DNA of 64,000 nucleotides from an uncultured Thermoplasmatales archaeon. GTDB taxonomy: Archaea > Thermoplasmatota > E2 > DHVEG-1. Below the pieces are notes generated by a model, which saw only the letters and a program-made list of their open reading frames with translations, searched no databases and was not told the origin of the DNA. Below are positions 9,484 to 50,311 of this stretch, piece by piece. The DNA lies in NCBI GenBank assembly GCA_964391965.1, contig CAYMOC010000002.1, positions 16,915 through 80,914 on the forward strand, read 5' to 3'. The translations under genes were made by a program, and so were the position numbers. How positions within the stretch are numbered: the stretch's first letter is position 1; the number at the start of each line of letters is the position of its first letter.

Positions 9484-9504
9484 AACAGAAACCTACAAAG
9501 AATT

Positions 9505-12011: not shown

Positions 12012-12064
12012 TTATTAAATTTTATTGGAAGCATTCTTAAGTTTGATATGAATTATAATGGATA

Positions 12065-12913: not shown

Positions 12914-12940
12914 TAAAAAAAACATATAAGTTGATAAAAA

Positions 12941-13594: not shown

Positions 13595-13601
13595 GTTTGT
13601 T

Positions 13602-14978: not shown

Positions 14979-15098
14979 TTTTCAAATATTTCCTCTTTTT
15001 TTGCTCTACATGTATTATTAACACAAGATATTTAACTTTTAATAATAGAACTATATTATTTGATTTAAAGGGAGGCGTCTTAACTGAGCGTGTTTTCT

Positions 15099-16412: not shown

Positions 16413-16416
16413 TGTT

Positions 16417-17814: not shown

Positions 17815-17828
17815 TTTTAGATCCTTTT

Positions 17829-19157: not shown

Positions 19158-19270
19158 ACCTCCCTAATTAATATTAAACTATTTATTGAACCTAAATAAT
19201 TTTTATGATGATTTATCCTTAAGAAGGGGAAGTATATTTAATCTTTTTTATTAGGTGATTAATAAAAAAA

Positions 19271-20587: not shown

Positions 20588-20682
20588 AGACAAAAATTGT
20601 ATTAAATAGATTATATAAATATGTTTATCATACATATAAAAAAGTTTTTTTATAGGATAAAACATATAAAAAATGGTTTTCT

Positions 20683-21699: not shown

Positions 21700-21735
21700 A
21701 TAGAAAATAATATTATTACTATTTATTTTTAAATT

Positions 21736-22716: not shown

Positions 22717-22761
22717 TTTTTTATCAGAAAAATATAGTTTATTGTTATAAAATAATTTTTT

Positions 22762-32420: not shown

Positions 32421-32436
32421 TTTAAAACAAAAAAAA

Positions 32437-33198
32437 TTATATTTTTGTTGCCTCAACAATTTTATTAAGAGCACTTTCAAGATTTTTTTCTTCCTCAAGA
32501 GCAGTACCAGTTACAATAATATCTGCTCCAGCTATAGCTTTTTTTCTAACAGTTTCGGCATCACGAATGCCACCACCGACAACCAAGGGAATATTGATGT
32601 TTTTCTTAACCGCTTTGATCATCTCATCAGAAACAGGATCGGGTGCACCGGAGCCAGCCTCTAAATAAAAAAACTTCATTCCAAGAAACTCAGAAGCAAT
32701 ACCGTATCCTACTGCAGTTTCAATATCAGATCGTTCGACTAAATCCACATCCCCCATCTTACCCGCAGTCATACCAGGTTCAACAATAAGATAACCCATA
32801 GAAATAGGTTCAAGACCAACATGTTTGACAAAAGGTCCACCTTTTACATGTTCACGGATAACAAAATCAAGATTCCGAGAATTAAGAAGACTCATAAAAA
32901 AAATCGCATCAGCATAACCACTAAGAAATTTAGCACCCGAGGGAAACAAAATAACAGGAAGATTACATTGAGCTTTAATTGCTTTAACAGTATCATCAAC
33001 CTGTTCACTAGAAGCAAGAGTTGATCCGCCTACCATTATTGCACTACTACCTGCTTTTTCAGCGGTTTTTGCTTTAACAGCAGCTTCATCGGAAGTTTGA
33101 TCCTCAGGGTCTAAAAGAGCGAAATGAAGAGTTCTTTCTAATGCAGTTTTTGATATATCTTCAGATAATGTCATACTAACACGTCGAAAATAAAACAT
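32437..33198 (-). CDS. geranylgeranylglyceryl phosphate synthase
   Basis: It has a PcrB/GGGPS TIM-barrel with the conserved C-terminal GGGIRD. Confidence 0.7.
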   Translation of the reverse strand: MFYFRRVSMTLSEDISKTALERTLHFALLDPEDQTSDEAAVKAKTAEKAGSSAIMVGGSTLASSEQVDDTVKAIKAQCNLPVILFPSGAKFLSGYADAIFFMSLLNSRNLDFVIREHVKGGPFVKHVGLEPISMGYLIVEPGMTAGKMGDVDLVERSDIETAVGYGIASEFLGMKFFYLEAGSGAPDPVSDEMIKAVKKNINIPLVVGGGIRDAETVRKKAIAGADIIVTGTALEEEKNLESALNKIVEATKI

Positions 33199-33222: not shown

Positions 33223-34008
33223 TTAACCCAAAACTGTAAGATTTTCAATTAATTCCTTGTTACACGCTGCTATGACACTAGTTCTTTCATCCAAAGACAG
33301 GGGCATATCAAGCTTTCTACCCATCATATCTGTCACAAAACCACCAGCCTCACGAACAAACAAGGTAGATGCGGCAATATCAGTAACCCTCATGTACTCA
33401 CGTCCAACAATATAAAAATCCAAAGCACCTGTAGCCACAAGACACATCTCCAAGCTAGCACAACCTAAAGAACGAACTTTATCTTGTTTAGCAAGAACGA
33501 AACTTTTTTTATCATAATTATTACCCAAAGTCAAACAAGAAAGAATCTGCTTATCGGGAACCTCTGGAGCGGCAACACGGTTTTTGTTCATAAAGGCACC
33601 ATGACCTTTTTCGCAAACAAACAAATCACCAGTAGGAATATTACGAACCACACCATACCATACATCTGACAAGTTTTGTTTACCCACAGCTAAAGAAACA
33701 GAATAAAAAGGAATACCACGAGAGGCGTTACGAGTACCATCCACAGGATCCAAAACAAAAACAAACTCTCCCCCATTATCAACAAAACCAGCTTCTTCAC
33801 TAAGAACATTAACCTTAATTTTAGATTTCTTAATAGCCTTTAACGCTACATCCTCAGCAAGCTGATCAATAAACTTAGTAGGAGTACCATCAGCACCAAT
33901 ACCTACATTTCGTTTAAAACTAGAAAAATCAGATTTAGCAACACGTCTAACCTTACGATAGATTTTATCAACAACTTTACCAGCTAAAATTTTTATTTCT
34001 TCAACCAT
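33223..34008 (-). CDS. inositol monophosphatase / fructose-1,6-bisphosphatase family (SuhB-like)
   Basis: It has the VLDPVDGT metal-binding motif. Confidence 0.7.
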   Translation of the reverse strand: MVEEIKILAGKVVDKIYRKVRRVAKSDFSSFKRNVGIGADGTPTKFIDQLAEDVALKAIKKSKIKVNVLSEEAGFVDNGGEFVFVLDPVDGTRNASRGIPFYSVSLAVGKQNLSDVWYGVVRNIPTGDLFVCEKGHGAFMNKNRVAAPEVPDKQILSCLTLGNNYDKKSFVLAKQDKVRSLGCASLEMCLVATGALDFYIVGREYMRVTDIAASTLFVREAGGFVTDMMGRKLDMPLSLDERTSVIAACNKELIENLTVLG

Positions 34009-34297: not shown

Positions 34298-37200
34298 TTA
34301 TTTTATAAGCTTATTAACTAACATAAATATAAGGGGAAATCTTTGTGTAAACTGATAGAGTTTAAACAAAAACGAATTCACTTCTGAAACATGAACTCCA
34401 TCTATAACTGTTTGAGTGATACTGTTACCATTTAAATCAATTGCATTTGTTCTGAAAGAAAGTTTTGTATCATCTACTACAGAAATTTCTGCAATCCATC
34501 TATTTTCTGAAGTGGGAATTAAAGAAGTATTTTTCCAGGTTTTTCCGTTATCAGCAGAATGCTGCAAATTTAATTTTAACAAAGAACTTTCATCTTGGAC
34601 TTCCATTACCAATTGTATCTTATTATCTTTGGTAATAACTCTATTGTACAAATTATTGTTTAAACATCTAAGATAAACATCCGGAGGATTTGAATCTTTT
34701 GAAAGATTAGCAAAACTTTCAATTTTCGTAATAATTTTTGATGAAATTGAAAGATTTAAGTAACTTTCCGCTATGATTTCAAATTTAGAGGTATCCTTGA
34801 AACTAAAATAATCGTCCAGTTCTTCAGTTATGACATTATCATACAATACATTTCCATCTTGAATAATTGTCCAAATTGTTCTATCAACACCCGAAAAAAC
34901 ATTGTTACCATGTGCATCTTCTAAAATTGTATCAGTTAAAGTAATATAATTATTAGTTTCATTAAGTTTATTTTTGGATATTCTCAGGCCAGATTTAAAA
35001 GGATGTTCTCCAAATACTTTCGTAGGATTGCTATTTTTTCCGTAGCTTTCAATATTAAGCGACATAAAAGAGATACTTTTATTCTCATACATTCCAATTG
35101 CAGCATCGATATATTTAACTGGCTCAGCTTGAAGAAATACATTTATTTTATAAGGTGAAGGCATCGTAATTAATTTTGGTATCAAATCAATTGGATTCAT
35201 AAAATAAAATCCAAAAATATTGGTCAATTCATAGTCTTCTACAAAAGGAAACAGACCCCAATTTACAATACCCTCTTTGATCTGAGGAGTTTTAAGTATT
35301 GTTTCTCTTTTTATGAAGTTATTATAATCCGGTTTAAATGTTGTATCTTCTTTTATCCCTTGTTGGTTAAATCTTACAACATAAAAACTTGGCATTTTTG
35401 TTTCATGACTTAAATACCACATATAATCCTTGAACAATCTTAACTTTGGATGAAATTGGTAATTTAATGTCATGTTAAATTTCTCATTTGGAGAAATCCT
35501 AAAATCACCATCATAAAAAGTACTGCCAAATCCCGCCCTGTCAATACCAATACGATTATAACAAACAATTTGATTGATTCTTCCTGGATTAAAATCTACT
35601 TTTACTGTATTTTCTGAATCCACTATTATTCTACAATCATCGATTATACTGAGATCTTCTTTTAATAAAATATTTGTTTCTACTTTATTAGAAATAAAAT
35701 CATCCAGTTTTTTTGAGAAGGACTCACAAGAGTAGATATGATAAACACCATCTGGTAAATAAAAAACACTATTTAAACTACCTATTTCCGTCTCATTTTT
35801 ACCCATTTTTAAATACGTATAATAAGAGAAACCATACCAGTTATTTTCCTCAGAAAAAATCATTGTATAAGCAGTATAAATTCCAAAAAGTTTTATTTCA
35901 TCTTTATTCTTAAAAGGAGTAGAAATATTAATTTTATTTAAACCACTAATTCCAAACATTACATTATAACTGTCATTTAAATCAGAGGTTATCGATATTC
36001 GTCCATAATAGATTTTTTTAGGTATATTAGTTGTGTTAACTGTTAACTTTATAGATCTCTTGCATCCTGCAGGAATTATTAACTCAGTTTCATTTAATTT
36101 CACAAAATCAAATATGTTACCATGAATATCATATAATGATAATTTTAGACTTACTTCATGATCAACTATTTGGTTAAGATTTTCAATGTAAAATATTTCT
36201 TCTTTTGTAATAAACTCTGTAAACACTCCAAAATTGATAAATGAGTTTGAGATATGTAAATCAGAACTAACCGCCGAAGAAACATTTAATCTTCCAGCAC
36301 CCTCCTGATAAGCATTATAACCCAACGGATTTGCAGTTGAGGTTAACGCATCTTTAACATCAGAAACATTCCAATCTGGATGTGCCTGCATAACTAGACT
36401 AGCAGCACCTGCTACATGTGGACAAGCCATACTAGTACCAGAATAAGTCACATATCCCTCACTAAAAGCATCTGCTGCAGTAATCCTATAACCCGGAGCA
36501 ACAAGATCAGGTTTCATAAGATGATTAAAAGACGGTCCTTTACCGCTAAAATATGCTAACTCATCATTTTTTGTACTTGCACCAACAGATATTACATCAT
36601 TAGTACTAACAATTGGATTCATAGTATAATATCCAGCGCTTCCATCGTTTCCCGAGGCGACTACCACCAAAACATTATTCTCAATTGCATTGTTAATTGC
36701 TTTTTCTAAAGGATTTTCTGTAACACTACTAAATAATGTACTCGGGCCTAGACTCATACTTACAATATCTGCTTCATCTCCAGTATTTGAAATATTATCC
36801 GGCCCATAAGCAGCATATTCAATTCCAGAAATAATCCAAGAAATATAACCTCCGTCTTTACCTAATACTTTAACGTTCCATAGTTTTGCTTTTGGAGCAA
36901 TGCCAGTATAACGATAATCTGAGGCGGCACCAGTTCCTGCTGCTATACTAGCACAATGTGTACCATGACCAACAACATCCTCTTCAGTTTCATTATACTT
37001 GTTTTCCCTGGAGGGTATGCATAACTTATTTTCAACTACCTTTGGGTCATGTGTTAAAGGATTATCGTCTAAATCATCAAGATCAGGATGAGAACTATTT
37101 ATGCCTGTATCCAGAATGGCAATTTCGATATTTTCTCCATCAAATCCATAGTTATGAGCCAAATCCGCCCCTACAATTGGAACGCTTTCATCTAAACAAA

Positions 37201-37864
37201 CATCTACTTTTCTATCTAACCATATTTTATTTATATTATTATCTGAAATTAACGATTCAACTTCAAAATCAGGTTCTTTTATAGAGATTTTTGAGGCGAC
37301 TAAATTTGCAATACTATAATAATTACGAGACATCGTATTTTCTTTTATCAGCCTATCAGTTTTAAGTAAAGAAGTATCATCTAAAAAAGAGGATCTGCAA
37401 ATATTATTTACCTCGCTTCGACTATCTTTCAACTCTATAATAACAGGTATATAATCTAATTTATAATATTCATTTTCAATTAAATAATCAATGTTAAAAA
37501 ATTCAATATCGATTTTTTCCAAATCTATATTCTTTGGAATTAAATAATTATTATTTTTGATTTTTAATTCATGAAAATTATTGAGATCTTCTATTTGATC
37601 TGAGGGAAATATTATTGGTTTTTTATCTACATTTTCAATTTGTTTAACTAAAAAACGATCACCAGATATTAACATTAAATCTTGTGTGTCTCCAGATTTA
37701 TCCGATTGATAGTTATTATCAATCAAATAGTTATTATTATTCATTTTATAATTGGTAAAAATTTTCTTCCCCGATATACTACTAACATTATTTGTCATTA
37801 GAAGATTAAAACCAGCTAAAAATAAGATGCTTACTAATACAATAGATATGAGTTCTTTTTTCAT
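34298..37864 (-). CDS. secreted subtilisin-like (S8) serine protease with very long C-terminal extension
   Basis: The D/H/S triad motifs are AILDTGI, HGTHCAS and GTSMACPHVAG. A signal peptide follows the ATG at 37864. Confidence 0.7.
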   Translation of the reverse strand: MKKELISIVLVSILFLAGFNLLMTNNVSSISGKKIFTNYKMNNNNYLIDNNYQSDKSGDTQDLMLISGDRFLVKQIENVDKKPIIFPSDQIEDLNNFHELKIKNNNYLIPKNIDLEKIDIEFFNIDYLIENEYYKLDYIPVIIELKDSRSEVNNICRSSFLDDTSLLKTDRLIKENTMSRNYYSIANLVASKISIKEPDFEVESLISDNNINKIWLDRKVDVCLDESVPIVGADLAHNYGFDGENIEIAILDTGINSSHPDLDDLDDNPLTHDPKVVENKLCIPSRENKYNETEEDVVGHGTHCASIAAGTGAASDYRYTGIAPKAKLWNVKVLGKDGGYISWIISGIEYAAYGPDNISNTGDEADIVSMSLGPSTLFSSVTENPLEKAINNAIENNVLVVVASGNDGSAGYYTMNPIVSTNDVISVGASTKNDELAYFSGKGPSFNHLMKPDLVAPGYRITAADAFSEGYVTYSGTSMACPHVAGAASLVMQAHPDWNVSDVKDALTSTANPLGYNAYQEGAGRLNVSSAVSSDLHISNSFINFGVFTEFITKEEIFYIENLNQIVDHEVSLKLSLYDIHGNIFDFVKLNETELIIPAGCKRSIKLTVNTTNIPKKIYYGRISITSDLNDSYNVMFGISGLNKINISTPFKNKDEIKLFGIYTAYTMIFSEENNWYGFSYYTYLKMGKNETEIGSLNSVFYLPDGVYHIYSCESFSKKLDDFISNKVETNILLKEDLSIIDDCRIIVDSENTVKVDFNPGRINQIVCYNRIGIDRAGFGSTFYDGDFRISPNEKFNMTLNYQFHPKLRLFKDYMWYLSHETKMPSFYVVRFNQQGIKEDTTFKPDYNNFIKRETILKTPQIKEGIVNWGLFPFVEDYELTNIFGFYFMNPIDLIPKLITMPSPYKINVFLQAEPVKYIDAAIGMYENKSISFMSLNIESYGKNSNPTKVFGEHPFKSGLRISKNKLNETNNYITLTDTILEDAHGNNVFSGVDRTIWTIIQDGNVLYDNVITEELDDYFSFKDTSKFEIIAESYLNLSISSKIITKIESFANLSKDSNPPDVYLRCLNNNLYNRVITKDNKIQLVMEVQDESSLLKLNLQHSADNGKTWKNTSLIPTSENRWIAEISVVDDTKLSFRTNAIDLNGNSITQTVIDGVHVSEVNSFLFKLYQFTQRFPLIFMLVNKLIK

Positions 37865-37937
37865 TTTATCCAAACCAAATTTTTTATTTGTTTGTTTATA
37901 TAAATTTTCATATATAAATTTTTCCTTATATAAAAAA

Positions 37938-38846
37938 TTAATTAATGTTTTCAAAATTTGCACTATAAAATGACAAAAAAACTACAACAAAAAACCCTGC
38001 AATTATTGAAAAAAAGGTAAAAAATACATTCGAAGGATTATCAAGTATAATCTTACCAGGGGAACGAAGAGCACCTACCATCAAACCAATAACAAAACAT
38101 AAAGTAGCTGTATGATACTTTTTAAGAAGAAAAGACAAAACTCGAGAAAAAGAAAGTAAACCAACTGCTCCACCAGCAATATATAATACTGCATAGGGAA
38201 GATCAGTGAAATCTAAAGTCGCGATTTTTTTTAAAACATTTATCATAAAACTATACTGACCAAGAACAAGAAGAATAAAAGCACCAGACACACCTGGCAG
38301 TATCATAGCACAAAAAGAAATGAAACCAGCAAGAAAAATAACTATAAAAGAATGGGTGGTATTTATTTGTTCTAAACCTACAACCAGAAAACCAACTAAA
38401 AACCCAATTAAAACAAAAAAAAGAGACCTAAAAGTAATATTTTTCTTAACCGAATGATAAACAAAAAAAGCAGAAGCAAGAATTAAACCAAGAAAAAAAG
38501 CATAAGTATAATTCTTAAAATTAATTATCAAATAATCCATAAGATGAGCAAGAGATAAAAAAGCAATAAAAATACCAAATGCTAACGGAATTAGTAAAGC
38601 AAAATCTATTTTTAAAAAATTTTCACAAGCTTTTTTAAAATATTTTCGTTTATAGAAACCTTTAAAAAAATAAAAAACAAACTTCAAATCTATAGCTCGG
38701 ATAGCATAAACCAGTCTTTCATAAATACCAGTTATAAGAGCAATTGTTCCACCAGAAACACCAGGGATTATATCAGCACTACCCATGAATAATCCTTTTA
38801 GAAAAATCAGTAATGCCTCAAACTTTGTGTTTTTTGTTTTTTCCAA
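37938..38846 (-). CDS. DUF368-family polytopic membrane protein
   Basis: Two repeats carry a PGVSGxT motif (BacA-like PGxSRSGxT) and there are about 8 TM helices. Confidence 0.45.
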   Translation of the reverse strand: MEKTKNTKFEALLIFLKGLFMGSADIIPGVSGGTIALITGIYERLVYAIRAIDLKFVFYFFKGFYKRKYFKKACENFLKIDFALLIPLAFGIFIAFLSLAHLMDYLIINFKNYTYAFFLGLILASAFFVYHSVKKNITFRSLFFVLIGFLVGFLVVGLEQINTTHSFIVIFLAGFISFCAMILPGVSGAFILLVLGQYSFMINVLKKIATLDFTDLPYAVLYIAGGAVGLLSFSRVLSFLLKKYHTATLCFVIGLMVGALRSPGKIILDNPSNVFFTFFSIIAGFFVVVFLSFYSANFENIN

Positions 38847-38902
38847 GAATCTTATGCCACCTTAAATCTTAAAAGTTGATAGTAGAAAACATAATTAAAT
38901 AA

Positions 38903-40183
38903 TTATACTTTTTTTCCAAAACCTTTGCTTACCATTAATTCTTTACCCTCTATTACTCTTTCACCACGTATAAAAACATCCGAAGGAAAACATGCTCTAA
39001 AACCTTCAAATGGCGTCCAACCACAACGTGAATGAAGCATATCCGAATCAATCTTGGTTTCATCTTTTAAATCAATAACAACTAAATCAGCATCAAAACC
39101 TTTAACGATTTTTCCTTTACGGATATTTAATATTTCTGCAGGTTTTTCACATAATAAAGAAATCAAACGATTCCAAGAAATTTTTTCTTTTTTAGCCAAA
39201 TACAAAAACAAAGGATACATTGTTTCAACACCCGGAACACCAGAGGGTGCTTCGTTAAACTCTTTTTCTTTTTCTTCCAAGCTGTGTGGTGCGTGATCAG
39301 ATTCTAAAACATCAAAACCATGTTTAATTATATTTTCAAATAAAAAATCCCTGATATCTTTTTGTCTAATTGGAGGGTTAACTTTGTAAAAACTCTGAGG
39401 AGAAAGATGTTTATCAACATATAATAGACTATGATGAGGGGTTACACCACAACTAACATTATTTTCATTACAGTCCTTAATTAAATTAAATGCTTCTTTT
39501 GTCGAAATATGACAAAAATGAATTTTAACATCCAAACCTTTCTTAAATTCTAACACTTGTTTAACAGCTAATTGTTCACATACACCTGGACGAGTTTTAA
39601 GGTGATCCGAAATGTTTTCTTCTTTTATTCTATATTTATTTAAACATTTTTCATCCTCAGCATGAAACAAAATAGGAACATCAACTCCATCCAATGTTTC
39701 AAACAAAGATTTAAGATTATCAAAATCAAATAACAATGAATTTGTTGAACTACCAAGATATGCTTTGAAACCATTACCAAAATCTGCTAACTTATAAGCA
39801 TCTGAAAAATTGTTGTTATTTAAACCAGCGTACAATCCAAAATCTACAACAGATTTATTTTCAGCAGTAGAAATCTTATCTTTTAAATCTGAAACAGTAA
39901 CAGTTTGTGGTTTTGTATTCGGCATATCAAAAACACAAGAAATACCTCCAAAAACAGCGGCTTTTGAACCTGTATAAAAATCCTCTTTTTGTGTCATACC
40001 AGGATCCCTGAAATGAACATGGATGTCTACCCCTGCTGGAAGGATAACCTTGTTTTTAAACTTAAAATGTTTATCACCGGTTAGAATCTTTTTAATACTA
40101 ACTATTTTACCTTCATCTATTCCAATACAACAGTTTTGAAAACCGCCATTAATGTAACATTTTCCTTCAACAACTGTTTCCAT
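38903..40183 (-). CDS. pyrC: dihydroorotase
   Basis: DIHVHFRDPG…MPNTKP is a cyclic amidohydrolase signature. The start is at the internal ATG at 40183. Confidence 0.7.
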   Translation of the reverse strand: METVVEGKCYINGGFQNCCIGIDEGKIVSIKKILTGDKHFKFKNKVILPAGVDIHVHFRDPGMTQKEDFYTGSKAAVFGGISCVFDMPNTKPQTVTVSDLKDKISTAENKSVVDFGLYAGLNNNNFSDAYKLADFGNGFKAYLGSSTNSLLFDFDNLKSLFETLDGVDVPILFHAEDEKCLNKYRIKEENISDHLKTRPGVCEQLAVKQVLEFKKGLDVKIHFCHISTKEAFNLIKDCNENNVSCGVTPHHSLLYVDKHLSPQSFYKVNPPIRQKDIRDFLFENIIKHGFDVLESDHAPHSLEEKEKEFNEAPSGVPGVETMYPLFLYLAKKEKISWNRLISLLCEKPAEILNIRKGKIVKGFDADLVVIDLKDETKIDSDMLHSRCGWTPFEGFRACFPSDVFIRGERVIEGKELMVSKGFGKKV

Positions 40184-40778
40184 CAATTTTTTTCTCCAAT
40201 ATTTCTCCATTGGGTTTTGTTTCAGTAAAAATCTGACCAGAGAATTTATAAATTTTTGTATCAGTTTCAAACCAGGAATCAGGAGGAAGTCCTGCTTTCA
40301 TACAAGTGTGATTCAAAAATTCTTCTTTATCCCACTCTTGTTCAACAGGCACCTGTGGAAGAAGTAGTCCTTTAAACATTCCTTTTTCCACGATGAGTCC
40401 ATCTCGTCCGATTTTTATTGTATCAACATACTCTTGTGGTTTATCAACCTTGATTATTTCTGGTTTTGTAAGAATTGTAACCTCAATAATAATTTTATCA
40501 AGCTCATCAACACTTAAAGGAGGAAAACGAGGATCCCGGGTAGCTGAACTAGCTCCTTCTGCTATAGCGTCTTTTAGTTTCATAACAGGCGTGGGAATTC
40601 CTATACATCCACGTAAATCATGATTTGGGTGAGTATGAAGTGTTACAAAAGCTCCTTGTTTTTCATCAAAAAAATCTTCATCAAAACCAGGTATAGTATC
40701 ATTTTTAACTTTATTTTCAACAACGTTTCTAGCATACTTTACTGCTTTTTTTCCTTTATCTAAATCAATCATAATCAA
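40167..40778 (-). CDS. AMMECR1 domain protein
   Basis: It has the LRGCIG signature. Confidence 0.7.
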   Translation of the reverse strand: MIMIDLDKGKKAVKYARNVVENKVKNDTIPGFDEDFFDEKQGAFVTLHTHPNHDLRGCIGIPTPVMKLKDAIAEGASSATRDPRFPPLSVDELDKIIIEVTILTKPEIIKVDKPQEYVDTIKIGRDGLIVEKGMFKGLLLPQVPVEQEWDKEEFLNHTCMKAGLPPDSWFETDTKIYKFSGQIFTETKPNGEILEKKIDGNSC

Positions 40779-40852
40779 AAAAAGAGTAACATATTTGTTA
40801 TTTAAAAGAAATTTGGTAGAAAAAAAATAAAAAAAGAAATTTTTAAAAATAT

Positions 40853-43800
40853 TTAGTCTTCATCTCTTGACATCAATATGTTTTCTGTTTGAGTCATTGG
40901 TTCATTATCTTCAGAAACAACTTCAAGTGTTCCAATATAGGTATAATTAACTGTATCATTTCCAAATTTAACTGTTTGATTTATAGATACATTATATGAA
41001 CCGGGTTTCAACTCTAGATAATACTGACCGTTTTTATCAGAGGTTATTGTTTTTGATGCTGCTGTGTTATTAACAACTGATTCGTTTTTATCAAAATCAA
41101 TCTTTATGTTACCAATGTTTGAACCATTAATTTTGTCCTTTGTTTCACCACTTACATTGACTGTATGTTTTGTAAGAGAGATATCTAAAGAACTTGTAGA
41201 TGCTGTATCTATTTGTCCATCATAGGAATACACCAAAGCTTTACCCTCTTCTGTATAGCTTCGAATGGTTATATTATAAGAAGCATCATTATTTAATTCT
41301 ACAGTGAACTCTCCGTTTTCATCACTAGTTGGATCATCGGGTGATTTAGCAGGGTTATCCTCTGCTGATTTATCTATCGAGAAATCAATTTCTATATCAT
41401 CAACAGGTTGATTGTTAAATTCAACGTTTCCTGTGAAAGTTAAAGATTCTTTGGTTAATGAAATATTTTGACTTGTTCCATCAGAAGCAGAATCTATATC
41501 ACCTGAACCTGTGTAAACAACTACATCACCTTCGGTGTAATTAACAGATATATTGTAGTAACCTTCAGGTGTTAATTCAACCAGATAGTATCCATCTGAA
41601 TCTGTTGTTGGATTAAATGGTTTTAACGCTGAGTTATTTTCAATTGATTCATCGATTTCAAAATCAAGAGCGATACCTGATTTTTCTATAACGTTTGAGC
41701 TTTTATCAACTATATAACCAGTTATTGTAGCGGAATGTTTCTCAGTTAGTTCTATGTCTTTATCATTGATTTCTGTTTCACTTTTATCAATTGTAAAACC
41801 ACTTTCATTATAAGTGTAAACTAAAACATCTCCTTCTTTATGACTTATCGAAATATTATATACTCCAGGTATCAAATCAAACTTTTCATCAGTTTCTCCA
41901 TTTAATTCATTTGTATATTCGCCATTTAAGTTAGTAATAGCAGTTTTTGCAACTGCAGTATTATTAACAGGATCCTCAACAGACAGATCTGGTGAAAACT
42001 CAATCTGTATTTCTTTATCTTCAACATCTTCACCATCGTATTCAACAGAACCACTTACTTCAACAGGTGCAAGACCAACTGAAATATTATAAGTCAAGGT
42101 CTCATTTTCCTGAGGGAAAATGTATTCCTCTGCAGCATATTCAGTAGTCTCAACTTTTAAAGTGTAGTTGTTAAGATTTAAACCATTAATTGAACCAGGT
42201 ATAAGATTTTTAAAAGAAAAATCTCCTTCGGAATCAGTTGTATCATTTTTAATTTCAGAAGCAACAGTGAACATGTCAGTTGTTTTTTTATGAAGTAAAC
42301 GAACAGTCACATCTTTTAGTTCTTCACCAGAATCATATTTTCCATTCTGGTTTTCATCATAAAATAATTTACCTTCAACATTGGCTGGTTTAGCTTTTGA
42401 AATATTAAGTGTTTTAGTACCAGAATGTAAATTCACAAGATTTCCATAAATGTTGAAATCACCTTCTGATGCATATAGTTGATATCTTCCAGGGAATAAA
42501 TCTGAAACACCATAAAAACCTGATTCTGAAGAAGTATTATCGCCTCGATCGCCTCCCGCAGTATCAGGTTGACCATTTTGATCTATTTTAGTTATTTCTA
42601 TAAGATTCACAGATACATTAGAAAGAACTTTATCAGAGGAAGAATCAAAACTACTATTATCATCCTTATTTTCAAAAACATAACCTTCAACACCTGCAGG
42701 TTTAATTGTAATATTTCCAAGATCTATTCTTCCTTTATCATCAGTAAGTCGCATAGCTTCATCCTCTGAAACTTGAACAGTTATATTTTTAAGGATGAAA
42801 CCACCAACATTTTCATTTTCAATGGATGCAGGAATACCAGAACCAATGGTTGGATAAATATTGAATAATTGTGACATATACTCAGGATAACGAATAACAC
42901 TGAGTTTTATTTCCCCGCCACCAGTTAAAGCACTAAAGTTACCATCAGAAATATTAATCTGATCATGTGTTACTGGAATAACAACTTCATCTGTGTAACT
43001 AAGATTTTTCTGAACCAGCATCATCACAGGTTTATTCATATATTCACCTTGATAAACAAGTGAACCGTTGACTGTGGCACCCTCGTAATATTTAGCAATG
43101 ACAACTGGAGCGAAACCTTGATATTTGGAAATATCAGAAACATACTCTGCATAGAAATGCTTCATACCCTGACAAGGGAGTTGAAAATTTGGAAACTGAC
43201 TTTGTTGTTGCCCTTGCATCTGTGACATTTGACTTTGCCTATATCCAAAGAATGTTTTGTAAAACATAGTATTAAAATATGGATCTTGATAATCCTGACT
43301 AGTGTCAGTAACTTGATAATATTGCCTTTCATTTTCAGGTAATTCTAGAATTTCTTTGGCATACTGATCGAACCTACGTTCAGGTTCTCCTTGTGGATTC
43401 AAAACTTCTCCTTTGTAATTGATTTTAACAAATTCATCACTTGGTACTTGTTGAGTCATAATAAGACTTTTATCAGCAAGAAATGCAAATATACTAAAAA
43501 TTTGTCTATCATAGATTTCTGTAGCATAATAACGAATACTTAACCCCGTAGTTTCCTGAATATCATGATAGAACCACACGGTTTCATCCAGAGATAGACC
43601 AGTTGTGTTATTATTTACCAAATCAACAATATCATGATAATAAGCATTTTCAGGCCATTGAGCACCTACTTTTAGAAATCTTTCATCAATATTTTGAATA
43701 TACTGATGATACTCAGGATAAATGTCTTCACCGTATGATGGAGACTCAGTAGGCTGTTCTAACCAAGAAGAGATCTTTTCTGCATTATCCGGGAAATATT

Positions 43801-45790
43801 TATTTAAAACATCATACACATCATCAGAAACTTTGTTTTTGTTTTTTGAAACATCGCCTTCCATCAAACGTATCGCTAAAACAGCTATAGCTTCTTTTTC
43901 ACTAGTAGCAGTATGAAAATTACTGGCAGGAGGAATACCATCCTGGAAATTGTCAGCAACAGTAGGATGTTCACCAATTGCAACCTCATAGAAACCATAA
44001 TCCCACCAGGATATAACAGCAGGACGATCTACTGGATCTGAAATATCTGTATCTTGTTGTTTCAACCATTGAAAAGCTTCAGTCCAATATCTTTCTTTTC
44101 CAACACCTAAACCAAATGGATGAGAAACTTCTTCACCCCAAAACATTTCCTTCCATGTGCCATCTCCATCTTCAGTTTCAGCATTAGGAATAGCAGCAGT
44201 AAAAACAGGTATAATATTAAAAATCAAAGACATAGAAACAAAAAGGATTCCCACTACATGTAAAACTTTTACACCACGTCGTATCCCATGCAAACCTCCT
44301 CCAGCATTTTTAATATCCCTAACCATACCTGGATAGTCAATTTTATCAATAATTAACCAAGTTAGAAAACCAGCAAAAATAGCTATCACCGGCGCCATAT
44401 CTGTAAGAAAACGACCAGCAATACCAGTCAACCAAACATTTACCATAAACAAGATAACCAAAAATAATAAATCATTTCTCTCATGATTTTTATAAAATTT
44501 ATAGATTACAAAAATAAAACCAGCCCAACCAAGCCAATACAAAACAGCACCGAAATTCATAACAGTATTACTAATCGGAAAAGTATTAGCCTCAGCAATA
44601 GTCAAAGAAACTTTATTAGAATAAATCCCGCCAGTACCACGAATGATTTCACTAAACTTTGAAAGCTGACCTATATATGGGACAACAGAACTAAGCTCTG
44701 GAATAAACCATAAAAAGGAAAAACCAGCACCACCTAAAATTAATATAACAGGCAATGAAAGAGTCCAAGGGATTTTTCTTCTACCCAACACATAATAGAT
44801 TAATCCAAAAATCAAGACTCCTAATATCATATAAAATGGGATTGTTGCTCTGAAACCACTCGCCCATTTTGATGCGATCACAGGCAACGAAACCATATAA
44901 CCTGTAAAAAGTATAACCAAAGGAGGCATAAACGTTTTAATATCATCTTTTCCTTTTAAAAGATCGATAAAAATTTGAACAAATGCATACAACGCAATAA
45001 CAGTATACAAGTATTCATGTTCAACCCAAACCATACTTAAACCAGCAAGAGATATTCCTCCAAGAAGAGCATAAAAAAATGATTTTGCTCTATCTTTTTC
45101 TTTAATGCTTTTTATAAGAAAAGCAAACGTTATGAAAAACAAAAGTAAGTTAAATGAATCATGATCAAAAAGAGAATAAGCTGAACCATGACCTGTACCA
45201 ACAATTGCAACAGTTAACGAAAGCCATAAAGCAGAGATTAATCCAACTTTTTTATTAAATACATCTTTTCCTATAGAATAAACTGGGAAAACAAGTAACG
45301 CTCCAAATAAAGCAGGTATAAACTGCATCGCATATCCAATTGCATCAATTTCATCCATAAACGGAGTTAACACTCTACTGAAACCAAGAGCCATCATGTT
45401 AAATAATGGAGCACGACCACCAGATCGGCCAATAGGATAATCTAGTAAGGGATCATTCTCTGAGTAAAACTGGTACGTCCCCTCATTATATGTTTCTTCA
45501 ACGATTCTCATATTATAGTAAGGGTCCGGGCCTGAAAGATAATATTTTTCTAAGCCATCTCCATCAGGATTATATGCTACACCACTTATAATGTTGAAAT
45601 AGGAATTAAAGAGTAATACTAATAAAAAGATTCCAATTAAAGCAACTCCTATCCACCAGTTTTTTTTCAGTTTAGGGATTGTGCTTTTTGGTTTTTCAAT
45701 CACTGTTTTTCTGGTGGATACATGTTTTGGTTCTTCTGAATAGGTTTTACTTTTTCTTTGTGCTCGTTTTCGCATTTTAACTTTCACCAT
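40853..45790 (-). CDS. aglB: oligosaccharyltransferase AglB/STT3 with ~700-aa C-terminal repeat extension
   Basis: It has a polytopic N-terminal domain, the WWDYG motif (ISWWDYGFYE) and an N-terminal DPYY/SGGRAPL region. C-terminal repeated beta-domains contain YNISVNYTEGDVVVYTG-like units. Confidence 0.8.
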   Translation of the reverse strand: MVKVKMRKRAQRKSKTYSEEPKHVSTRKTVIEKPKSTIPKLKKNWWIGVALIGIFLLVLLFNSYFNIISGVAYNPDGDGLEKYYLSGPDPYYNMRIVEETYNEGTYQFYSENDPLLDYPIGRSGGRAPLFNMMALGFSRVLTPFMDEIDAIGYAMQFIPALFGALLVFPVYSIGKDVFNKKVGLISALWLSLTVAIVGTGHGSAYSLFDHDSFNLLLFFITFAFLIKSIKEKDRAKSFFYALLGGISLAGLSMVWVEHEYLYTVIALYAFVQIFIDLLKGKDDIKTFMPPLVILFTGYMVSLPVIASKWASGFRATIPFYMILGVLIFGLIYYVLGRRKIPWTLSLPVILILGGAGFSFLWFIPELSSVVPYIGQLSKFSEIIRGTGGIYSNKVSLTIAEANTFPISNTVMNFGAVLYWLGWAGFIFVIYKFYKNHERNDLLFLVILFMVNVWLTGIAGRFLTDMAPVIAIFAGFLTWLIIDKIDYPGMVRDIKNAGGGLHGIRRGVKVLHVVGILFVSMSLIFNIIPVFTAAIPNAETEDGDGTWKEMFWGEEVSHPFGLGVGKERYWTEAFQWLKQQDTDISDPVDRPAVISWWDYGFYEVAIGEHPTVADNFQDGIPPASNFHTATSEKEAIAVLAIRLMEGDVSKNKNKVSDDVYDVLNKYFPDNAEKISSWLEQPTESPSYGEDIYPEYHQYIQNIDERFLKVGAQWPENAYYHDIVDLVNNNTTGLSLDETVWFYHDIQETTGLSIRYYATEIYDRQIFSIFAFLADKSLIMTQQVPSDEFVKINYKGEVLNPQGEPERRFDQYAKEILELPENERQYYQVTDTSQDYQDPYFNTMFYKTFFGYRQSQMSQMQGQQQSQFPNFQLPCQGMKHFYAEYVSDISKYQGFAPVVIAKYYEGATVNGSLVYQGEYMNKPVMMLVQKNLSYTDEVVIPVTHDQINISDGNFSALTGGGEIKLSVIRYPEYMSQLFNIYPTIGSGIPASIENENVGGFILKNITVQVSEDEAMRLTDDKGRIDLGNITIKPAGVEGYVFENKDDNSSFDSSSDKVLSNVSVNLIEITKIDQNGQPDTAGGDRGDNTSSESGFYGVSDLFPGRYQLYASEGDFNIYGNLVNLHSGTKTLNISKAKPANVEGKLFYDENQNGKYDSGEELKDVTVRLLHKKTTDMFTVASEIKNDTTDSEGDFSFKNLIPGSINGLNLNNYTLKVETTEYAAEEYIFPQENETLTYNISVGLAPVEVSGSVEYDGEDVEDKEIQIEFSPDLSVEDPVNNTAVAKTAITNLNGEYTNELNGETDEKFDLIPGVYNISISHKEGDVLVYTYNESGFTIDKSETEINDKDIELTEKHSATITGYIVDKSSNVIEKSGIALDFEIDESIENNSALKPFNPTTDSDGYYLVELTPEGYYNISVNYTEGDVVVYTGSGDIDSASDGTSQNISLTKESLTFTGNVEFNNQPVDDIEIDFSIDKSAEDNPAKSPDDPTSDENGEFTVELNNDASYNITIRSYTEEGKALVYSYDGQIDTASTSSLDISLTKHTVNVSGETKDKINGSNIGNIKIDFDKNESVVNNTAASKTITSDKNGQYYLELKPGSYNVSINQTVKFGNDTVNYTYIGTLEVVSEDNEPMTQTENILMSRDED

Positions 45791-45870: not shown

Positions 45871-46743
45871 TTATAATGATTGATTTGAAAGAATCTTTTT
45901 CATAACAGTTGCAGTTTTTACTATACTAAAATCATTTTCGATAGTATCAGTTGATATGATTTCATCACATCCATTAGATTTTAGTTTTTCAACAGCATTT
46001 TTTGCAAACAAACCATGAGTGCAAGCTGCAAAAACTTTGTTTGCACCATTTTTTTTAAGCTGCTGAATTGATTTAGCCATGGTGCCACCAGTTGAGATTA
46101 TATCATCAACTATTGCTACATTTTTGTTTTTTGCATCAAGATTTTTTGGTTTAATTTCAACTGTCTCTCCATCGATGCGTGTTTTTTCCATATAATCAAA
46201 ATCACAACCAATGATCGATGCTGCTTTTTTAGCTCTATTAAGTGCTCCTTTGTCAGGAGCAAGAATCATATCAACATCTTTTGTTTTTAGATGTTCTGCA
46301 ATAGCAGAAACAGCTGAACAACTTTTAGCTTCACAATCAAAAAAATCAAGAATGTATTCTTTATGAGGATCCACTGTTACAAAAAAATCTGTATTCAAAC
46401 TAATAAGTTTAGCAATAGCACGAGCACTAATTGGTTCCCCATCTTTAAATTTTTGATCCTGACGAGCATAACCAAAATAAGGAGCAACAACTGTGATACT
46501 ATTTGCTTTTGCTTCTTTTACTGCATCCATAAGTAAAAAAAGCTCAATTATTTTTTCATCAGGAAAAGTAGTTTGAACAATTATAACATCTTCATCAGAT
46601 ACATCATCCATGAGTCTAACATACAATTCTCCATCAGGAAAACGTTTTCTCTCAAGTTTAACCACTGATACATTCAAAACTTTAGATAAGTCATTAGATA
46701 TTTTCTTTGATGCTGAACCTTCAATAATCTTCATAACAATCAA
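45871..46743 (-). CDS. prs: ribose-phosphate pyrophosphokinase
   Basis: It has the PRPP-binding motif VDDIISTGGT. Confidence 0.8.
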   Translation of the reverse strand: MIVMKIIEGSASKKISNDLSKVLNVSVVKLERKRFPDGELYVRLMDDVSDEDVIIVQTTFPDEKIIELFLLMDAVKEAKANSITVVAPYFGYARQDQKFKDGEPISARAIAKLISLNTDFFVTVDPHKEYILDFFDCEAKSCSAVSAIAEHLKTKDVDMILAPDKGALNRAKKAASIIGCDFDYMEKTRIDGETVEIKPKNLDAKNKNVAIVDDIISTGGTMAKSIQQLKKNGANKVFAACTHGLFAKNAVEKLKSNGCDEIISTDTIENDFSIVKTATVMKKILSNQSL

Positions 46744-46839: not shown

Positions 46840-49029
46840 ATGAAATACAATCGTACTATTATTTTTATATTAATAATCGGATTAATTTTTTCTTCTGTAG
46901 CTGTTAATATTGACACGATAAATGCAGATGATGAAAATGCACAAGACAATGTGGATACTGAATTCAGAATTACAATAAATTCTCCCACTTATTTTTTGAT
47001 TAATGCAACAACGATTGTTGAACATATAACCCTACCAGGCAGCGGTAAAACATATAACACCTCTCAGATTGAATCAGGGAGTGCACCTCTCGAGGCTATT
47101 AAAGGACGCATCCATGAAGTTATAAATGAAACAATAAGAAATACATTCCCAGGATGTAAAATAAATCCGAATCAGGATTTACCAGCATATACTAATGGTT
47201 CTTTTAACTCCGATTTTTTTATAACTGTAACAACAGAGTTTTTTTCAATGAACGAAAAAGCAGATTTAGCTAAAATGCTAAAAGGAATGCTAAATATGGG
47301 TGCAGATATAGTATACGATTTTAATCTATACGCAACAAACGGATGGCAGAACACTTTTGAATTTTTTTCTGAATCAGAATACACAATCATCAGCTCCAGC
47401 AGAAAAAAAACTGTTGATGGAAATATACAAAACGAAAATAACAAAAAAATTAAGATTACAAACATGTCAAAATCATCAAGTCTAGAAGAAAAAATCACAT
47501 TTGATTTTAAGATTGATTCAACACAAAATAAAAGAAATTCTCTAGAGATTACAATGACAATAAAATCAATCGCAATATCTATTTATAACCTTCCTGATTA
47601 TGTCGACAAATTGAGTTTTATAACTGCTGATGGAATAAGACTTTTTATAGAAAACAAATTTAACAATTTCACATGGAGCAATATAAAAACCACTACAATC
47701 AATCCTCTAATAAAAGACACGTCATCAATAATTGAAAATTCATCTCTAAATCAAACACTGAACCTCGAATTTGAATGGGATACAAACTCTACAGAAGTTT
47801 CACCGGGCTATGATTTAAATAATATGGATAGTCAACCACCTATAAAAACAACATTTATAGACGACTATGTTAACTTAAGCATATGTAATATCTCTGATAA
47901 AGCATTTTATGGCATAATAAATTCAGGAGGCAAAGTAAATCTTAATTCCGAGGATATCAATTTTGGTGATGGTTTAAACAAATTATCATATGAATATGAG
48001 AATTCAATATTATTCCCAAAAAATATGACATTAAGTAATCAAAATCCATTTACATGGAAACAATCAGAGGATTTTAACGGAAACTTTGAATCGAAAGATG
48101 CAAAGGATTACAATAAAGAAAATAAAGAAACAGTTATTGAAATTGACCTTCAAAATCCTCGGTTAAATGTTTTGAGTTTTATAACAGGTAATACCGAGCT
48201 TGAATTTGATGCAATAGTTACAGAGAGTAGAAAATATTATGTTTCAAATATATCAAATGAATCAGAATATTTCCCAATTCCAGAAAAAATTTCTCTGGAT
48301 TATCTTTGCGCTGATGCCTTTAGATTATGTGTAAATGAAAATGTTTTCAGTGATGAAAACATGACTAGTTTTTTACAGAATGAAAAAAATATTTTCAAAC
48401 AAAGAACAAATGATTTATGGCCGGGTTTAAAAATCGGTAAACAAGCAAAAATAGATAAAACAACGTTTGAAAAATCCTTAAATTCCGAAGAAGTAAATAT
48501 TTTTGATATGGACGAATATCCTGCTATAAATGTTGACAGTAACGCTAAAATAGTTAAGCCTATCAATTTTGATTTAGGTCTTCTACCGCCGTCTTTTAAA
48601 ATAGAAAAACAAACATTTAAAATAGAAAGTTTAGAGGATCAAAATATAACGTATAGGATTATATTCCCAGATGGCATAAATGTAAAGGTTAGAAATAGTT
48701 TAATTAAAGATGCGGATATACAAAAAACAAAAGATGGAAGAACAATAATTGAATTTAGTTTCAATAGTTCAGAAGGAGGTTTGCCTGCTAATCTCATAGA
48801 TTGCGAACTTGAGACGTCCGGTGTTTTTATCCTTGGCATGTTTCTACCATGTATACTCACATTTATTGTGGCAATTATTCTTGTATTAGTAATTATTTTT
48901 GTTAAAAGAAAAAAAGGTGGAAGATTCAGAGATTTAATACCACGTAGATCTAAAAAAGAAAAATTTGAAGAAGACAGTTACGAAGATGAAGAATTCTATG
49001 TTCCGCCACCACCGGAAGGAAAAAAATAG
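46840..49029 (+). CDS. type-I membrane surface protein, hypothetical
   Basis: It has a signal peptide, a large Asn/Ser-rich ectodomain, a C-terminal TM helix and a basic tail with PPPP. Confidence 0.45.
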   Translation: MKYNRTIIFILIIGLIFSSVAVNIDTINADDENAQDNVDTEFRITINSPTYFLINATTIVEHITLPGSGKTYNTSQIESGSAPLEAIKGRIHEVINETIRNTFPGCKINPNQDLPAYTNGSFNSDFFITVTTEFFSMNEKADLAKMLKGMLNMGADIVYDFNLYATNGWQNTFEFFSESEYTIISSSRKKTVDGNIQNENNKKIKITNMSKSSSLEEKITFDFKIDSTQNKRNSLEITMTIKSIAISIYNLPDYVDKLSFITADGIRLFIENKFNNFTWSNIKTTTINPLIKDTSSIIENSSLNQTLNLEFEWDTNSTEVSPGYDLNNMDSQPPIKTTFIDDYVNLSICNISDKAFYGIINSGGKVNLNSEDINFGDGLNKLSYEYENSILFPKNMTLSNQNPFTWKQSEDFNGNFESKDAKDYNKENKETVIEIDLQNPRLNVLSFITGNTELEFDAIVTESRKYYVSNISNESEYFPIPEKISLDYLCADAFRLCVNENVFSDENMTSFLQNEKNIFKQRTNDLWPGLKIGKQAKIDKTTFEKSLNSEEVNIFDMDEYPAINVDSNAKIVKPINFDLGLLPPSFKIEKQTFKIESLEDQNITYRIIFPDGINVKVRNSLIKDADIQKTKDGRTIIEFSFNSSEGGLPANLIDCELETSGVFILGMFLPCILTFIVAIILVLVIIFVKRKKGGRFRDLIPRRSKKEKFEEDSYEDEEFYVPPPPEGKK

Positions 49030-49038
49030 TTGATAAGT

Positions 49039-50223
49039 TTATTTTAAAAGTTTAGGTAAAAATCTTACCAACGAAGGTGATTTCTTAATCAAAGGTTTAA
49101 CTAGTTTAGAAGGAAAATCTATATCCCCATGTTCATTTATCGTGTTAATTATTTTTTCATTTTCAAACTTTTTAATATAGAAATCTAATTCTTCATCAGC
49201 TAAGTTTTTGAATATTTTTCTAAATCTCATACCTATTTTGATTTCTTTACCAAGCATGTTTGTCCATTTTTTTTGATAAATACTAAGGTTTTTTGCTGTA
49301 AAATCATTATTTCCAAGAGAATTTAGTGCTGTTTCGGCACAAAAATCTGCTGAAACTAAACCAGGGTATAAACCACCACCGGATGTGGGTTTTACCTGAG
49401 ACGCTGCATCTCCAACGATCATAAGATTGTCATCAAAAGTTTTTTTTAGAAACCCAACAGGTATTATTCCACCGATATTTTTTGTAATTTTAATATTTTT
49501 AAAAATTTTTTTTGTGTGTTTATGTTTTAAAAAACGGTTGAAATAATATTTTGATGAATGTTTACAGTTCTGTTGTATACATAAACCTATTCTTGCCTTG
49601 GTTCCCTCATCGTTTAAAGGGATGATCCATGCAAAAAAACCTGGAGATATTTTGTTTCCAACAAATATTTCGACAAAATCAGGATCAAGTTTTGTGTTTA
49701 TAATTTCTGCTCCGATACCGATTAGTTTTTCTTCAGGTTCAGGTAGTTTGAATTGTTTTCTAACCCTGGATAATGCTCCATCTGCACCTATTAATAATTT
49801 AGTATTGTAAACGTTTTCTTTATTTGTTTTGATTTTTATTTGATTGTGTTTTTTAACGGTTTCAATAAATTTTTCATTTCTATAAATCTGTGTGTTGCTA
49901 TCAACTGAGTTTTCTATTAGTTTTTTATCAAAAAGCTGTCGGTCTATAACCAACGCATGTGTTTTATTTCCACCAAGTGTTAATATATGATTTGATGGAG
50001 AATGAACGTGAGCTCCTTTTATCTTATTTTGGAGTGATTCATTTTTATTTATATCAATAAGTTTAAAGATTCTTGATGTGACTAAACCTGCGCATTGAAT
50101 ATGTTGTCCTATTTCTTTGTTTTTCTCTATAATTACTACTTTGTAACCTTTTTTTGAGATTTTCTGAGCAACTGATGCGCCTATTGGCCCTCCGCCGATA
50201 ATTGTAACATCTGTTTCCATCAT
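49039..50223 (-). CDS. geranylgeranyl reductase family FAD-dependent oxidoreductase
   Basis: It has the motifs VTIIGGGPIGASVA and VGDAASQVKPTSGGGL. Confidence 0.6.
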   Translation of the reverse strand: MMETDVTIIGGGPIGASVAQKISKKGYKVVIIEKNKEIGQHIQCAGLVTSRIFKLIDINKNESLQNKIKGAHVHSPSNHILTLGGNKTHALVIDRQLFDKKLIENSVDSNTQIYRNEKFIETVKKHNQIKIKTNKENVYNTKLLIGADGALSRVRKQFKLPEPEEKLIGIGAEIINTKLDPDFVEIFVGNKISPGFFAWIIPLNDEGTKARIGLCIQQNCKHSSKYYFNRFLKHKHTKKIFKNIKITKNIGGIIPVGFLKKTFDDNLMIVGDAASQVKPTSGGGLYPGLVSADFCAETALNSLGNNDFTAKNLSIYQKKWTNMLGKEIKIGMRFRKIFKNLADEELDFYIKKFENEKIINTINEHGDIDFPSKLVKPLIKKSPSLVRFLPKLLK

Positions 50224-50311
50224 TTTTATACAAGAGATTGTGTAATGTGCCAAAGATTTATAATGGAATCGTTGATTCACTGGCTTTAACAAAAAATACA
50301 AGAGTTTTTTA

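Follow-up and report, generated by a model that had tools for sequence, protein, structure and literature searches.

The locus analysed here lies in a 64-kb stretch of DNA (the window) from an uncultured member of the Thermoplasmatota. In minus-strand order, it carries genes for ribose-phosphate diphosphokinase (prs, 45871..46743; NF002095, 365.9 bits against a cut-off of 296), the oligosaccharyltransferase AglB (1645 aa, 40853..45790), an AMMECR1-family protein (40167..40778; PF01871, E 3.8e-53; TIGR00296, 233.8 bits), the dihydroorotase PyrC (38903..40270; TIGR00857, 359.9 against a cut-off of 279) and a 302-aa DUF368/PopT-family polytopic membrane protein (37938..38846). The DUF368 start is 2006 nt downstream of the aglB stop on the same strand, and a previous sequence-only reading, which had described a DUF368 gene about 2 kb from aglB with pyrC and AMMECR1 between them, was correct in all gene positions. 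pyrC and AMMECR1 are unrelated housekeeping genes. The listed form of the pyrC ORF overlaps AMMECR1; family alignments start only at ORF residues 30-47, and the actual start codon probably lies 20-30 codons into the ORF.

Further along the minus strand are genes for a secreted S8 subtilase (34298..37963; PF00082, E 5.8e-58), located between DUF368 and an inositol-monophosphatase (IMPase)-family protein (33223..34008; PF00459, E 1.3e-30), and then for a PcrB-family (GGGP synthase-type) isoprenoid lipid enzyme (32437..33198; PF01884, E 2.9e-57) and a UbiX/CoaC-type flavoprotein (31866..32498; PF02441), both within a conserved block. On the other side of prs, a ~730-aa (729) surface protein, with a signal-like segment at its N-terminus and a membrane anchor at its C-terminus, is encoded on the plus strand (46840..49029), and a geranylgeranyl-reductase-family flavoprotein (49039..50301, minus strand; PF01494 and PF22578 GGR_cat) marks the edge of the block. 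The 26-nt overlap between the DUF368 and S8 protease ORFs was rejected as real, the protease start being most likely at an internal MKKELISIV signal peptide. The subtilase has no counterpart at this position in the relatives L001-L008. The aglB gene is solitary here, outside any agl cluster: no glycosyltransferase, Wzx/AglR-type flippase or NDP-sugar gene was found among the ORFs of at least 150 aa in the 64-kb window, nor was a member of the DedA/UptA family (PF09335) present in it.

AglB consists of an STT3 membrane domain (PF02516), an AglB core (AglB_core) with WWDYG at about residue 595, and a C-terminal region of ~700 aa made of beta-sandwich repeats; PF22627, PF13620 and others also match, and the protein has 32 N-X-S/T sequons against 14 expected from its composition. 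The genes from aglB through DUF368 share a strand and are separated by short gaps. The aglB-AMMECR1 intergenic region (40779..40852, minus strand), read directly, has a T-run (TTTTTTTATTTTTTTT) followed by ACCAAATTT...TTTAAATA, a BRE/TATA-like, putatively promoter-like element. Most relatives also have a 'CCAAATTTT...TTTAAA' element, in many cases after a hairpin. The hairpin, the T-run and the conserved element after aglB suggest that aglB and the genes that follow it may belong to separate transcription units.

Profile searches identified the 302-aa protein as a clear full-length member of the DUF368/PopT family, not an equivalog of its characterised members. PF04018 ("VCA0040-like / undecaprenyl phosphate translocase-like") is its sole Pfam match (E 2e-66; 224.5 bits against a cut-off of 26; profile positions 1-227 of 246), and the family assignment of the sequence-only reading is thereby confirmed. 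The NCBIfam matches are restricted to polyprenyl-phosphate transporter models, namely NF052563 (PopT, 107.7 bits) and NF052564 (V. cholerae type, 201.3 bits). Neither equivalog cut-off, 400 bits in both models, is reached, so the bacterial substrate is not simply transferable to this protein. The protein retains all positions with 90% conservation or more among 81 homologues from archaea and bacteria. Gene calls in databases begin at M21 and give 282 aa, whereas translation from the TTG start gives 302 aa. Two features speak for the long form: a Shine-Dalgarno-like GGTGG sits 10 nt ahead of the TTG, and the FLKG segment near the N-terminus shows conservation (G18 in 98% of sequences).

PGVSG occurs twice in the protein, at residues 28-32 and 184-188. 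The sequence-only reading had described two BacA-like PGVSGxT repeats; there are indeed two repeats, but PGVSGxT itself occurs just once, as PGVSGGT (residues 28-34; 38745..38765, minus strand), and the second motif is PGVSGAF (residues 184-190; 38277..38297, minus strand). P28, G29, S31, G32, G33 and T34 in the first motif and P184, G185, S187 and G188 in the second are conserved at 99-100% in the 81-sequence alignment. Profile-profile comparison (hhalign) of the N-terminal half (10-158) with the C-terminal half (166-290) gave 96% probability and an E-value of 4.5e-9 with the motifs in register; judged by this alignment, the protein is an internal duplication of two homologous halves of ~150 residues each. 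The AlphaFold2 model is all-helical (pLDDT 83.7, pTM 0.77), and in its secondary structure each half opens with a helix-break-helix element that holds the near-invariant PG(V/I/L)SG in the break, motif 1 between helices 7-26 and 32-39 and motif 2 between helices 167-182 and 188-195. The top fold match in the PDB is BacA/UppP, a C55-PP phosphatase, and this match is weak, partial and confined to 93 residues; nothing in the Foldseek search with the model was significant, BacA included. A profile search of all PDB sequences with the 302-aa protein gave no match at E<=1, and neither sequence nor Foldseek searches found a solved DUF368 structure in the PDB.

The order prs-AglB-AMMECR1-pyrC-DUF368 is kept in all 13 related Thermoplasmatota loci (13/13). 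AglB is encoded ~2 kb upstream of DUF368 on the same strand in 8/8 close genome relatives, in the more distant Thermoplasmata genome L047 and in four metagenome loci; the latter derive from three looked-up homologues, and two of them, L083 and L084, have an identical DUF368 protein. Collinearity extends across all available flank and includes the ~730-aa surface protein upstream of prs, the five genes from prs to DUF368, the IMPase-family gene directly downstream of DUF368 in all relatives, PcrB, the flavoprotein, guaA (two genes), purE and topA. The geranylgeranyl-reductase gene is kept in L002, L003 and L005-L008, with at least 50% query coverage in L003 and L005-L008. Since conservation within the clade spans every neighbouring gene, it reflects general collinearity, counts as a single evolutionary event and is not specific evidence for coupling. 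The nearness of DUF368 to aglB is probably ancestral in this Thermoplasmatota clade and lies within a long collinear housekeeping region. In L047, the most distant relative, whose DUF368 protein is 45% identical, prs through IMPase are retained and the downstream genes are lost, which suggests that the core is more tightly held together. In the closer relatives, the core block is flanked by PcrB, the UbiX-type flavoprotein and a geranylgeranyl-reductase paralogue. It is quite improbable that the prs-aglB-AMMECR1-pyrC-DUF368-IMPase core forms a functional dolichol-carrier/N-glycosylation supra-operon of the clade, with AMMECR1 or the IMPase-family phosphatase acting in the carrier-lipid cycle alongside AglB and the PopT homologue.

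AglB was searched for in other archaeal DUF368 loci by an HMM search iterated three times from the window AglB and by a scan for W[WS][DE][YWFN]G in ORFs longer than 400 aa. Of the 70 archaeal DUF368 loci sampled, 10, representing only two lineages, had AglB in the flank available; it was found in none of the loci from Methanobacteriales (36), DPANN (6), Methanomicrobiales (7) and Methanosarcinales (2). The HMM and the motif scan returned the same 10 loci; the lack of linkage in Methanobacteriales, DPANN and Methanomicrobiales is thus unlikely to be due to overlooked AglB genes. The second, independent lineage is represented by a Halorussus locus (L080), in which a Wzx-like gene (Polysacc_synt, flippase type), AglB and DUF368 are directly adjacent. 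A rough chance estimate for linkage within 10 kb in two independent lineages of ~8, with 1.8-Mb genomes assumed, is ~0.003. The DUF368-aglB linkage pointed out by the sequence-only reading holds in the Thermoplasmatota relatives and in Halorussus, but not in most of the sample.

In a wider neighbour survey, the four genes on each side of DUF368 were clustered for 80 loci, and Pfam scans were run on the cluster representatives and on 125 neighbours from non-Methanobacteriales archaea. Just one sugar-related gene recurs among the neighbours, an NAD-dependent epimerase found in five loci (four Methanomicrobiales and one unclassified Methanobacteriota), and no glycosyltransferase family ranks in the top 25. 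In four Methanobacterium-type loci, DUF368 has a divergently oriented DedA/VTT gene next to it, and the neighbours in Methanobrevibacter include an aquaporin, DUF2193, helicases and UvrA.

Genetic evidence from S. aureus and V. cholerae points to a role of DUF368 proteins in the translocation of C55-P (PMC9876793; 10.1101/2022.02.03.479048). In their 2022 preprint, Roney & Rudner assigned 37% of archaeal duf368 genes to N-glycosylation clusters, frequently beside aglB, and dolichol phosphate recycling was proposed there for the archaeal homologues (10.1101/2022.02.03.479048). Sit et al. found that the H. volcanii homologue partially complements V. cholerae delta-vca0040 (PMC9876793). In the searchable literature, later papers included, we found no report of archaeal DUF368 activity on dolichyl phosphate or dolichol. 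As both the DUF368-aglB pairing and the recycling idea were published in 2022, the present locus is an ordinary further example. The dolichol phosphate recycling role suggested by the sequence-only reading is consistent with the family membership, the published proposal and the partial complementation by the Haloferax protein; it is not new, however, and here aglB is solitary and the evidence from linkage weak.

The window protein shares PF04018, the paired PG(V/I/L)SG motifs and the internal two-fold repeat with S. aureus SAOUHSC_00846 (PopT) and V. cholerae VCA0040. It differs from them in scoring 108 and 201 bits against the 400-bit equivalog cut-offs, and its archaeal host presumably uses dolichyl phosphate as a carrier, whereas that of bacterial PopT is C55-P. 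As in the haloarchaeal agl clusters and Haloferax volcanii (HVO_RS12060), an archaeal DUF368 gene lies near aglB; unlike in those clusters, aglB stands alone, DUF368 follows it only after two unrelated genes, and glycosyltransferase and flippase genes are missing from the vicinity. It is to this haloarchaeal group that the published recycling hypothesis and the partial complementation relate. The Halorussus DUF368 protein is only ~38% identical to the window protein. DedA/UptA (PF09335) is likewise proposed for polyprenyl phosphate translocation, but it is an unrelated family and is absent from the 64-kb window.

We consider, with a probability of roughly 0.6, that the 302-aa protein is a PopT-type polyprenyl-phosphate translocase that serves the whole dolichol-phosphate pool, its substrate most likely being dolichyl phosphate, and that it is unlikely to be a dedicated AglB partner whose gene is co-transcribed with aglB. 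By analogy with the bacterial work and with the BacA-like architecture, its two re-entrant loops would meet near mid-membrane and bind the carrier lipid at its phosphate head group while the polyprenyl tail remains in the bilayer, and alternating access would bring the lipid back from the outer to the cytoplasmic leaflet. The dolichyl phosphate would be freed on the outer face when AglB transfers its glycan to Asn and, once recovered, could be used again in the next round of glycan assembly.

A reading with the same translocase role, to which we give somewhat less than even odds, takes the nearness to aglB to be without functional meaning, an inherited order in a slowly rearranging region with separate transcription and regulation. 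It is favoured by the collinearity of the whole neighbourhood in every relative over the available flank, as far as guaA, purE and topA, by the hairpin or T-run and conserved BRE/TATA-like element between aglB and AMMECR1, by the lack of further agl genes in the window and by the absence of AglB linkage from ~60 other archaeal loci. The distant L047, which keeps prs-IMPase and loses the genes downstream, argues against this reading, as does the direct AglB adjacency that arose independently in haloarchaea. That the protein instead handles a different lipid phosphate or a small solute, for example a carrier for non-AglB glycoconjugates, or has a function tied to Na+ or pH and not connected with dolichol, appears unlikely. 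The scores under the equivalog cut-offs of the characterised bacterial proteins, the unrelated neighbours in other archaea such as those in Methanobrevibacter, and the pH- and sodium-dependent V. cholerae phenotype (PMC9876793) would fit such a function. However, both motifs show extreme conservation across bacteria and archaea, which argues for a common head-group substrate; the Haloferax homologue partly replaces the Vibrio protein, and the Methanobacterium gene is paired with DedA/VTT, the other candidate family of polyprenyl-phosphate translocases.

Least probable of all, and in our view very improbable, is that the protein acts as a BacA-like phosphatase on dolichyl diphosphate and not as a translocase. 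The two families may be built on a common plan, a pair of inverted repeats whose P-G/V-x-S loops sit in re-entrant hairpins. However, the structural match covers just the 93 residues mentioned above, no PDB chain is similar in sequence by the profile search at E<=1, Pfam BacA does not match, and the loops are PGVSGGT/PGVSGAF here against FLPVSS/WPGFS in BacA. BacA/UppP (PDB 5OON) has no detectable sequence homology to the DUF368 protein and no significant Foldseek match; it is an enzyme with its own motifs, whereas the bacterial genetics point to DUF368 as a translocase of the monophosphate. A PGxSRS scan for UppP genes in the fetched locus DNA returned only spurious high-GC ORFs.

Neither in archaea nor in eukaryotes has it been proven how dolichyl phosphate gets back to the cytoplasmic side once N-glycosylation has taken place, and PopT homologues are the leading archaeal candidate for this step. 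The present locus adds one lineage, uncultured Thermoplasmatota, in which a DUF368 gene is near aglB, with the caution that this proximity is indistinguishable from general collinearity in the clade and that most other archaeal lineages sampled are without the linkage; it raises no new question and offers no new test of the old one. As a separate observation, the ~730-aa surface protein encoded beside prs, which has no Pfam match, shows the highest sequon density in the window (18 against 11 expected).

The genes between 31.8 and 46.7 kb of the window (G+C ~30%) run co-directionally on the minus strand, and their products were identified with Pfam and NCBIfam. From upstream to downstream, they are prs (45871–46743), aglB (40853–45790; 1645 aa, with an STT3 domain, an AglB core, C-terminal beta-sandwich repeats, and the WWDYG motif at approximately residue 595), AMMECR1 (40167–40778), the dihydroorotase gene pyrC (38903–40270), the DUF368 gene (37938–38846; 302 aa, PF04018, E 2e-66, 224.5 bits), and, beyond a secreted 1221-aa S8 subtilase (34298–37963), genes for an inositol-monophosphatase-family protein (IMPase, 33223–34008), PcrB (32437–33198), and a UbiX-type flavoprotein of PF02441 (31866–32498). 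The sequence-only reading had placed DUF368 near aglB on the same strand, separated by pyrC and AMMECR1; this layout is correct, with 2006 nt from the aglB stop to the DUF368 start.

Among named sequences, the DUF368 protein is closest to entries that Thermoplasmatota metagenome-assembled genomes list as 'DUF368 domain-containing protein'. NCBI already has an identical gene call, which starts at M21 (282 aa). We favour the 302-aa form because the 20 residues before M21 (window 38786–38846, minus strand) show protein-level conservation, with an FLKG segment, because 98% of 81 homologues have G18, and because a GGTGG element precedes the TTG start by 10 nt. The public M21 starts of this protein and many relatives are probably N-terminally truncated models. 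All positions that are at least 90% conserved in the alignment of these archaeal and bacterial homologues are kept, including the stretches 'MG.AD.IPGVSGGTIALITGIY' and 'CAMILPG.SG'. The protein is internally duplicated: in hhalign its N-terminal half (10–158) proves homologous to its C-terminal half (166–290) at a probability of 96% (E 4.5e-9), and the alignment pairs the two motifs with each other. The AlphaFold2 model is helical and confident (pLDDT 83.7, pTM 0.77), and the two conserved loop motifs sit in helix-break-helix elements (residues 27–31 and 183–187). Two PGVSGxT repeats had been claimed, which was half right: there are two PGVSG motifs in an internal repeat, but the second reads PGVSGAF. 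BacA is described as having two inverted repeats (residues 1–150 and 151–273), and the two-repeat plan is apparently common to both proteins; we treat this likeness as architectural resemblance, not family membership. There is no solved DUF368 structure: a profile search of PDB sequences gave no match at all at E ≤ 1, and Foldseek gave none at E ≤ 0.001.

Linkage to AglB was analyzed in the 80 loci that best match the query (70 archaeal and 10 bacterial) in a single scan of species-representative genomes, each taken with at most 10 kb of flank per side. Chosen by similarity, the archaeal loci do not sample archaeal DUF368 genes at random. To detect AglB, phmmer was combined with three rounds of HMM iteration and a search for WWDYG-type motifs. 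Of the 70 archaeal loci, exactly 10 gave an AglB: all eight close Thermoplasmatota relatives (DUF368 49–86% identical), a more distant Thermoplasmata locus (L047, 45% identical), and Halorussus. The same flanks yielded no AglB in 36 Methanobacteriales, 6 DPANN, 7 Methanomicrobiales, and 2 Methanosarcinales loci or in the 10 bacterial loci. The Halorussus locus is a true agl cluster, in which a Polysacc_synt (Wzx-like) gene, AglB, and DUF368 are side by side. Three further homologues that were looked up led to four metagenome loci, all in the same gene order, two of which (L083 and L084) carry an identical DUF368 protein. Occurrence in two independent lineages of about eight is more than expected by chance (crude estimate ~0.003 for 1.8-Mb genomes); therefore, the DUF368–AglB association in general is real, but lineage-restricted.

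Other neighbours of DUF368 also recur. A divergent DedA/VTT gene (PF09335) immediately adjoins it in four Methanobacterium-type loci (e.g., L011:9245–9853, minus strand), so that two candidate polyprenyl-phosphate translocase families are paired in these genomes. An NAD-dependent sugar-nucleotide epimerase/dehydratase gene is immediately upstream in five loci (four Methanomicrobiales and one unclassified Methanobacteriota; e.g., L062:8961–9908, minus strand); no other sugar-related neighbour recurs outside Thermoplasmatota and Halobacteria.

Across all visible flank in the Thermoplasmatota clade, the whole neighbourhood is collinear (a ~730-aa surface protein, prs, AglB, AMMECR1, pyrC, DUF368, IMPase, PcrB, the flavoprotein, two guaA genes, purE, and topA), and its conservation therefore counts as one ancestral event, not specific to the DUF368–aglB pair. 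We give somewhat less than an even chance to the view that the proximity to aglB is simply inherited gene order. The only hint of specificity is L047, where prs through IMPase is kept and enolase follows. No glycosyltransferase, Wzx/AglR flippase, or sugar-nucleotide genes were found among the ORFs of at least 150 aa in the 64-kb window. The aglB–AMMECR1 intergenic interval (window 40779–40852) holds an element 'ACCAAATTTT...TTTAAA', often preceded by a G+C hairpin, which is conserved at the same position in the close relatives and three of the metagenome loci (L081–L083). A T-run follows the aglB stop in the window, and most relatives have a hairpin and then a conserved 'CCAAATTTT...TTTAAA' ~25–35 nt upstream of AMMECR1. 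This arrangement resembles a terminator and, after it, a BRE/TATA promoter, which would argue for separate transcription units for aglB and the downstream genes. A distant 'Methanobacteriota archaeon' likewise has AMMECR1 next to pyrC (L060:18003–19912, minus strand), ~8 kb from its DUF368, and this pair may be an old conserved unit.

We consider the window DUF368 protein a candidate translocase of dolichyl phosphate (probability of roughly 0.6). The two re-entrant loops would form a mid-membrane phosphate site while the lipid tail remains in the bilayer, and, once AglB has used the glycan, alternating access would bring dolichyl phosphate back from the outer leaflet to the inner one. The carrier in this lineage may be dolichyl phosphate (Dol-P) or Dol-PP; according to PMC4476749, Dol-P is the source of most characterised archaeal glycans. 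Roney & Rudner (bioRxiv 10.1101/2022.02.03.479048) noted that many archaeal genomes have a DUF368 gene, which in 37% of cases lies within an N-glycosylation cluster and often adjoins aglB, and proposed that the PopT homologue recycles AglB-released dolichyl phosphate. A Haloferax volcanii homologue partly complemented V. cholerae delta-vca0040 (Sit et al., PMC9876793). No later papers testing archaeal DUF368 on dolichol were found in the searchable literature. The recycling role suggested from the sequence is therefore a restatement of a published, still unproven hypothesis, and is partly supported here.

The window AglB is unusually long compared with its relatives (1280–1421 aa; L001, ~1635 aa). 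Its ~700 C-terminal residues are CarboxypepD_reg/SdrD_B/Ig-like repeats, and the protein carries 32 N-X-S/T sequons where its composition predicts 14. Divergently upstream of prs–aglB in all relatives is a gene for a 729-aa protein (46840–49029, plus strand) with a signal-like N-terminus, a C-terminal membrane anchor, and no Pfam match. Its sequons (18, where 11 are expected) are the densest in the window, and the protein is a possible surface or S-layer-type glycoprotein. The S8 subtilase is an insertion, absent at the same position in L001–L008 and in the metagenome loci L081–L084. Together with papain-like C1, M32, and M18 peptidases also encoded in the window, it suggests a protein-degrading lifestyle. 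A cluster at 7855–24045 contains a radical SAM gene (7855–9483), three B12-binding radical SAM genes (16417–17814, 17829–19157, and 22762–24045), a sulfotransferase, two methyltransferases, an AMP-binding enzyme, a UbiA prenyltransferase (10027–11019), and a geranylgeranyl-reductase-like gene (20683–21699), and may serve lipid modification or natural-product synthesis. Genes for isoprenoid lipids are plentiful in this region, with three geranylgeranyl-reductase-family paralogues in 64 kb (20683–21699, plus; 49039–50301, minus; 56095–57291, plus) in addition to PcrB and the UbiX-type flavoprotein.
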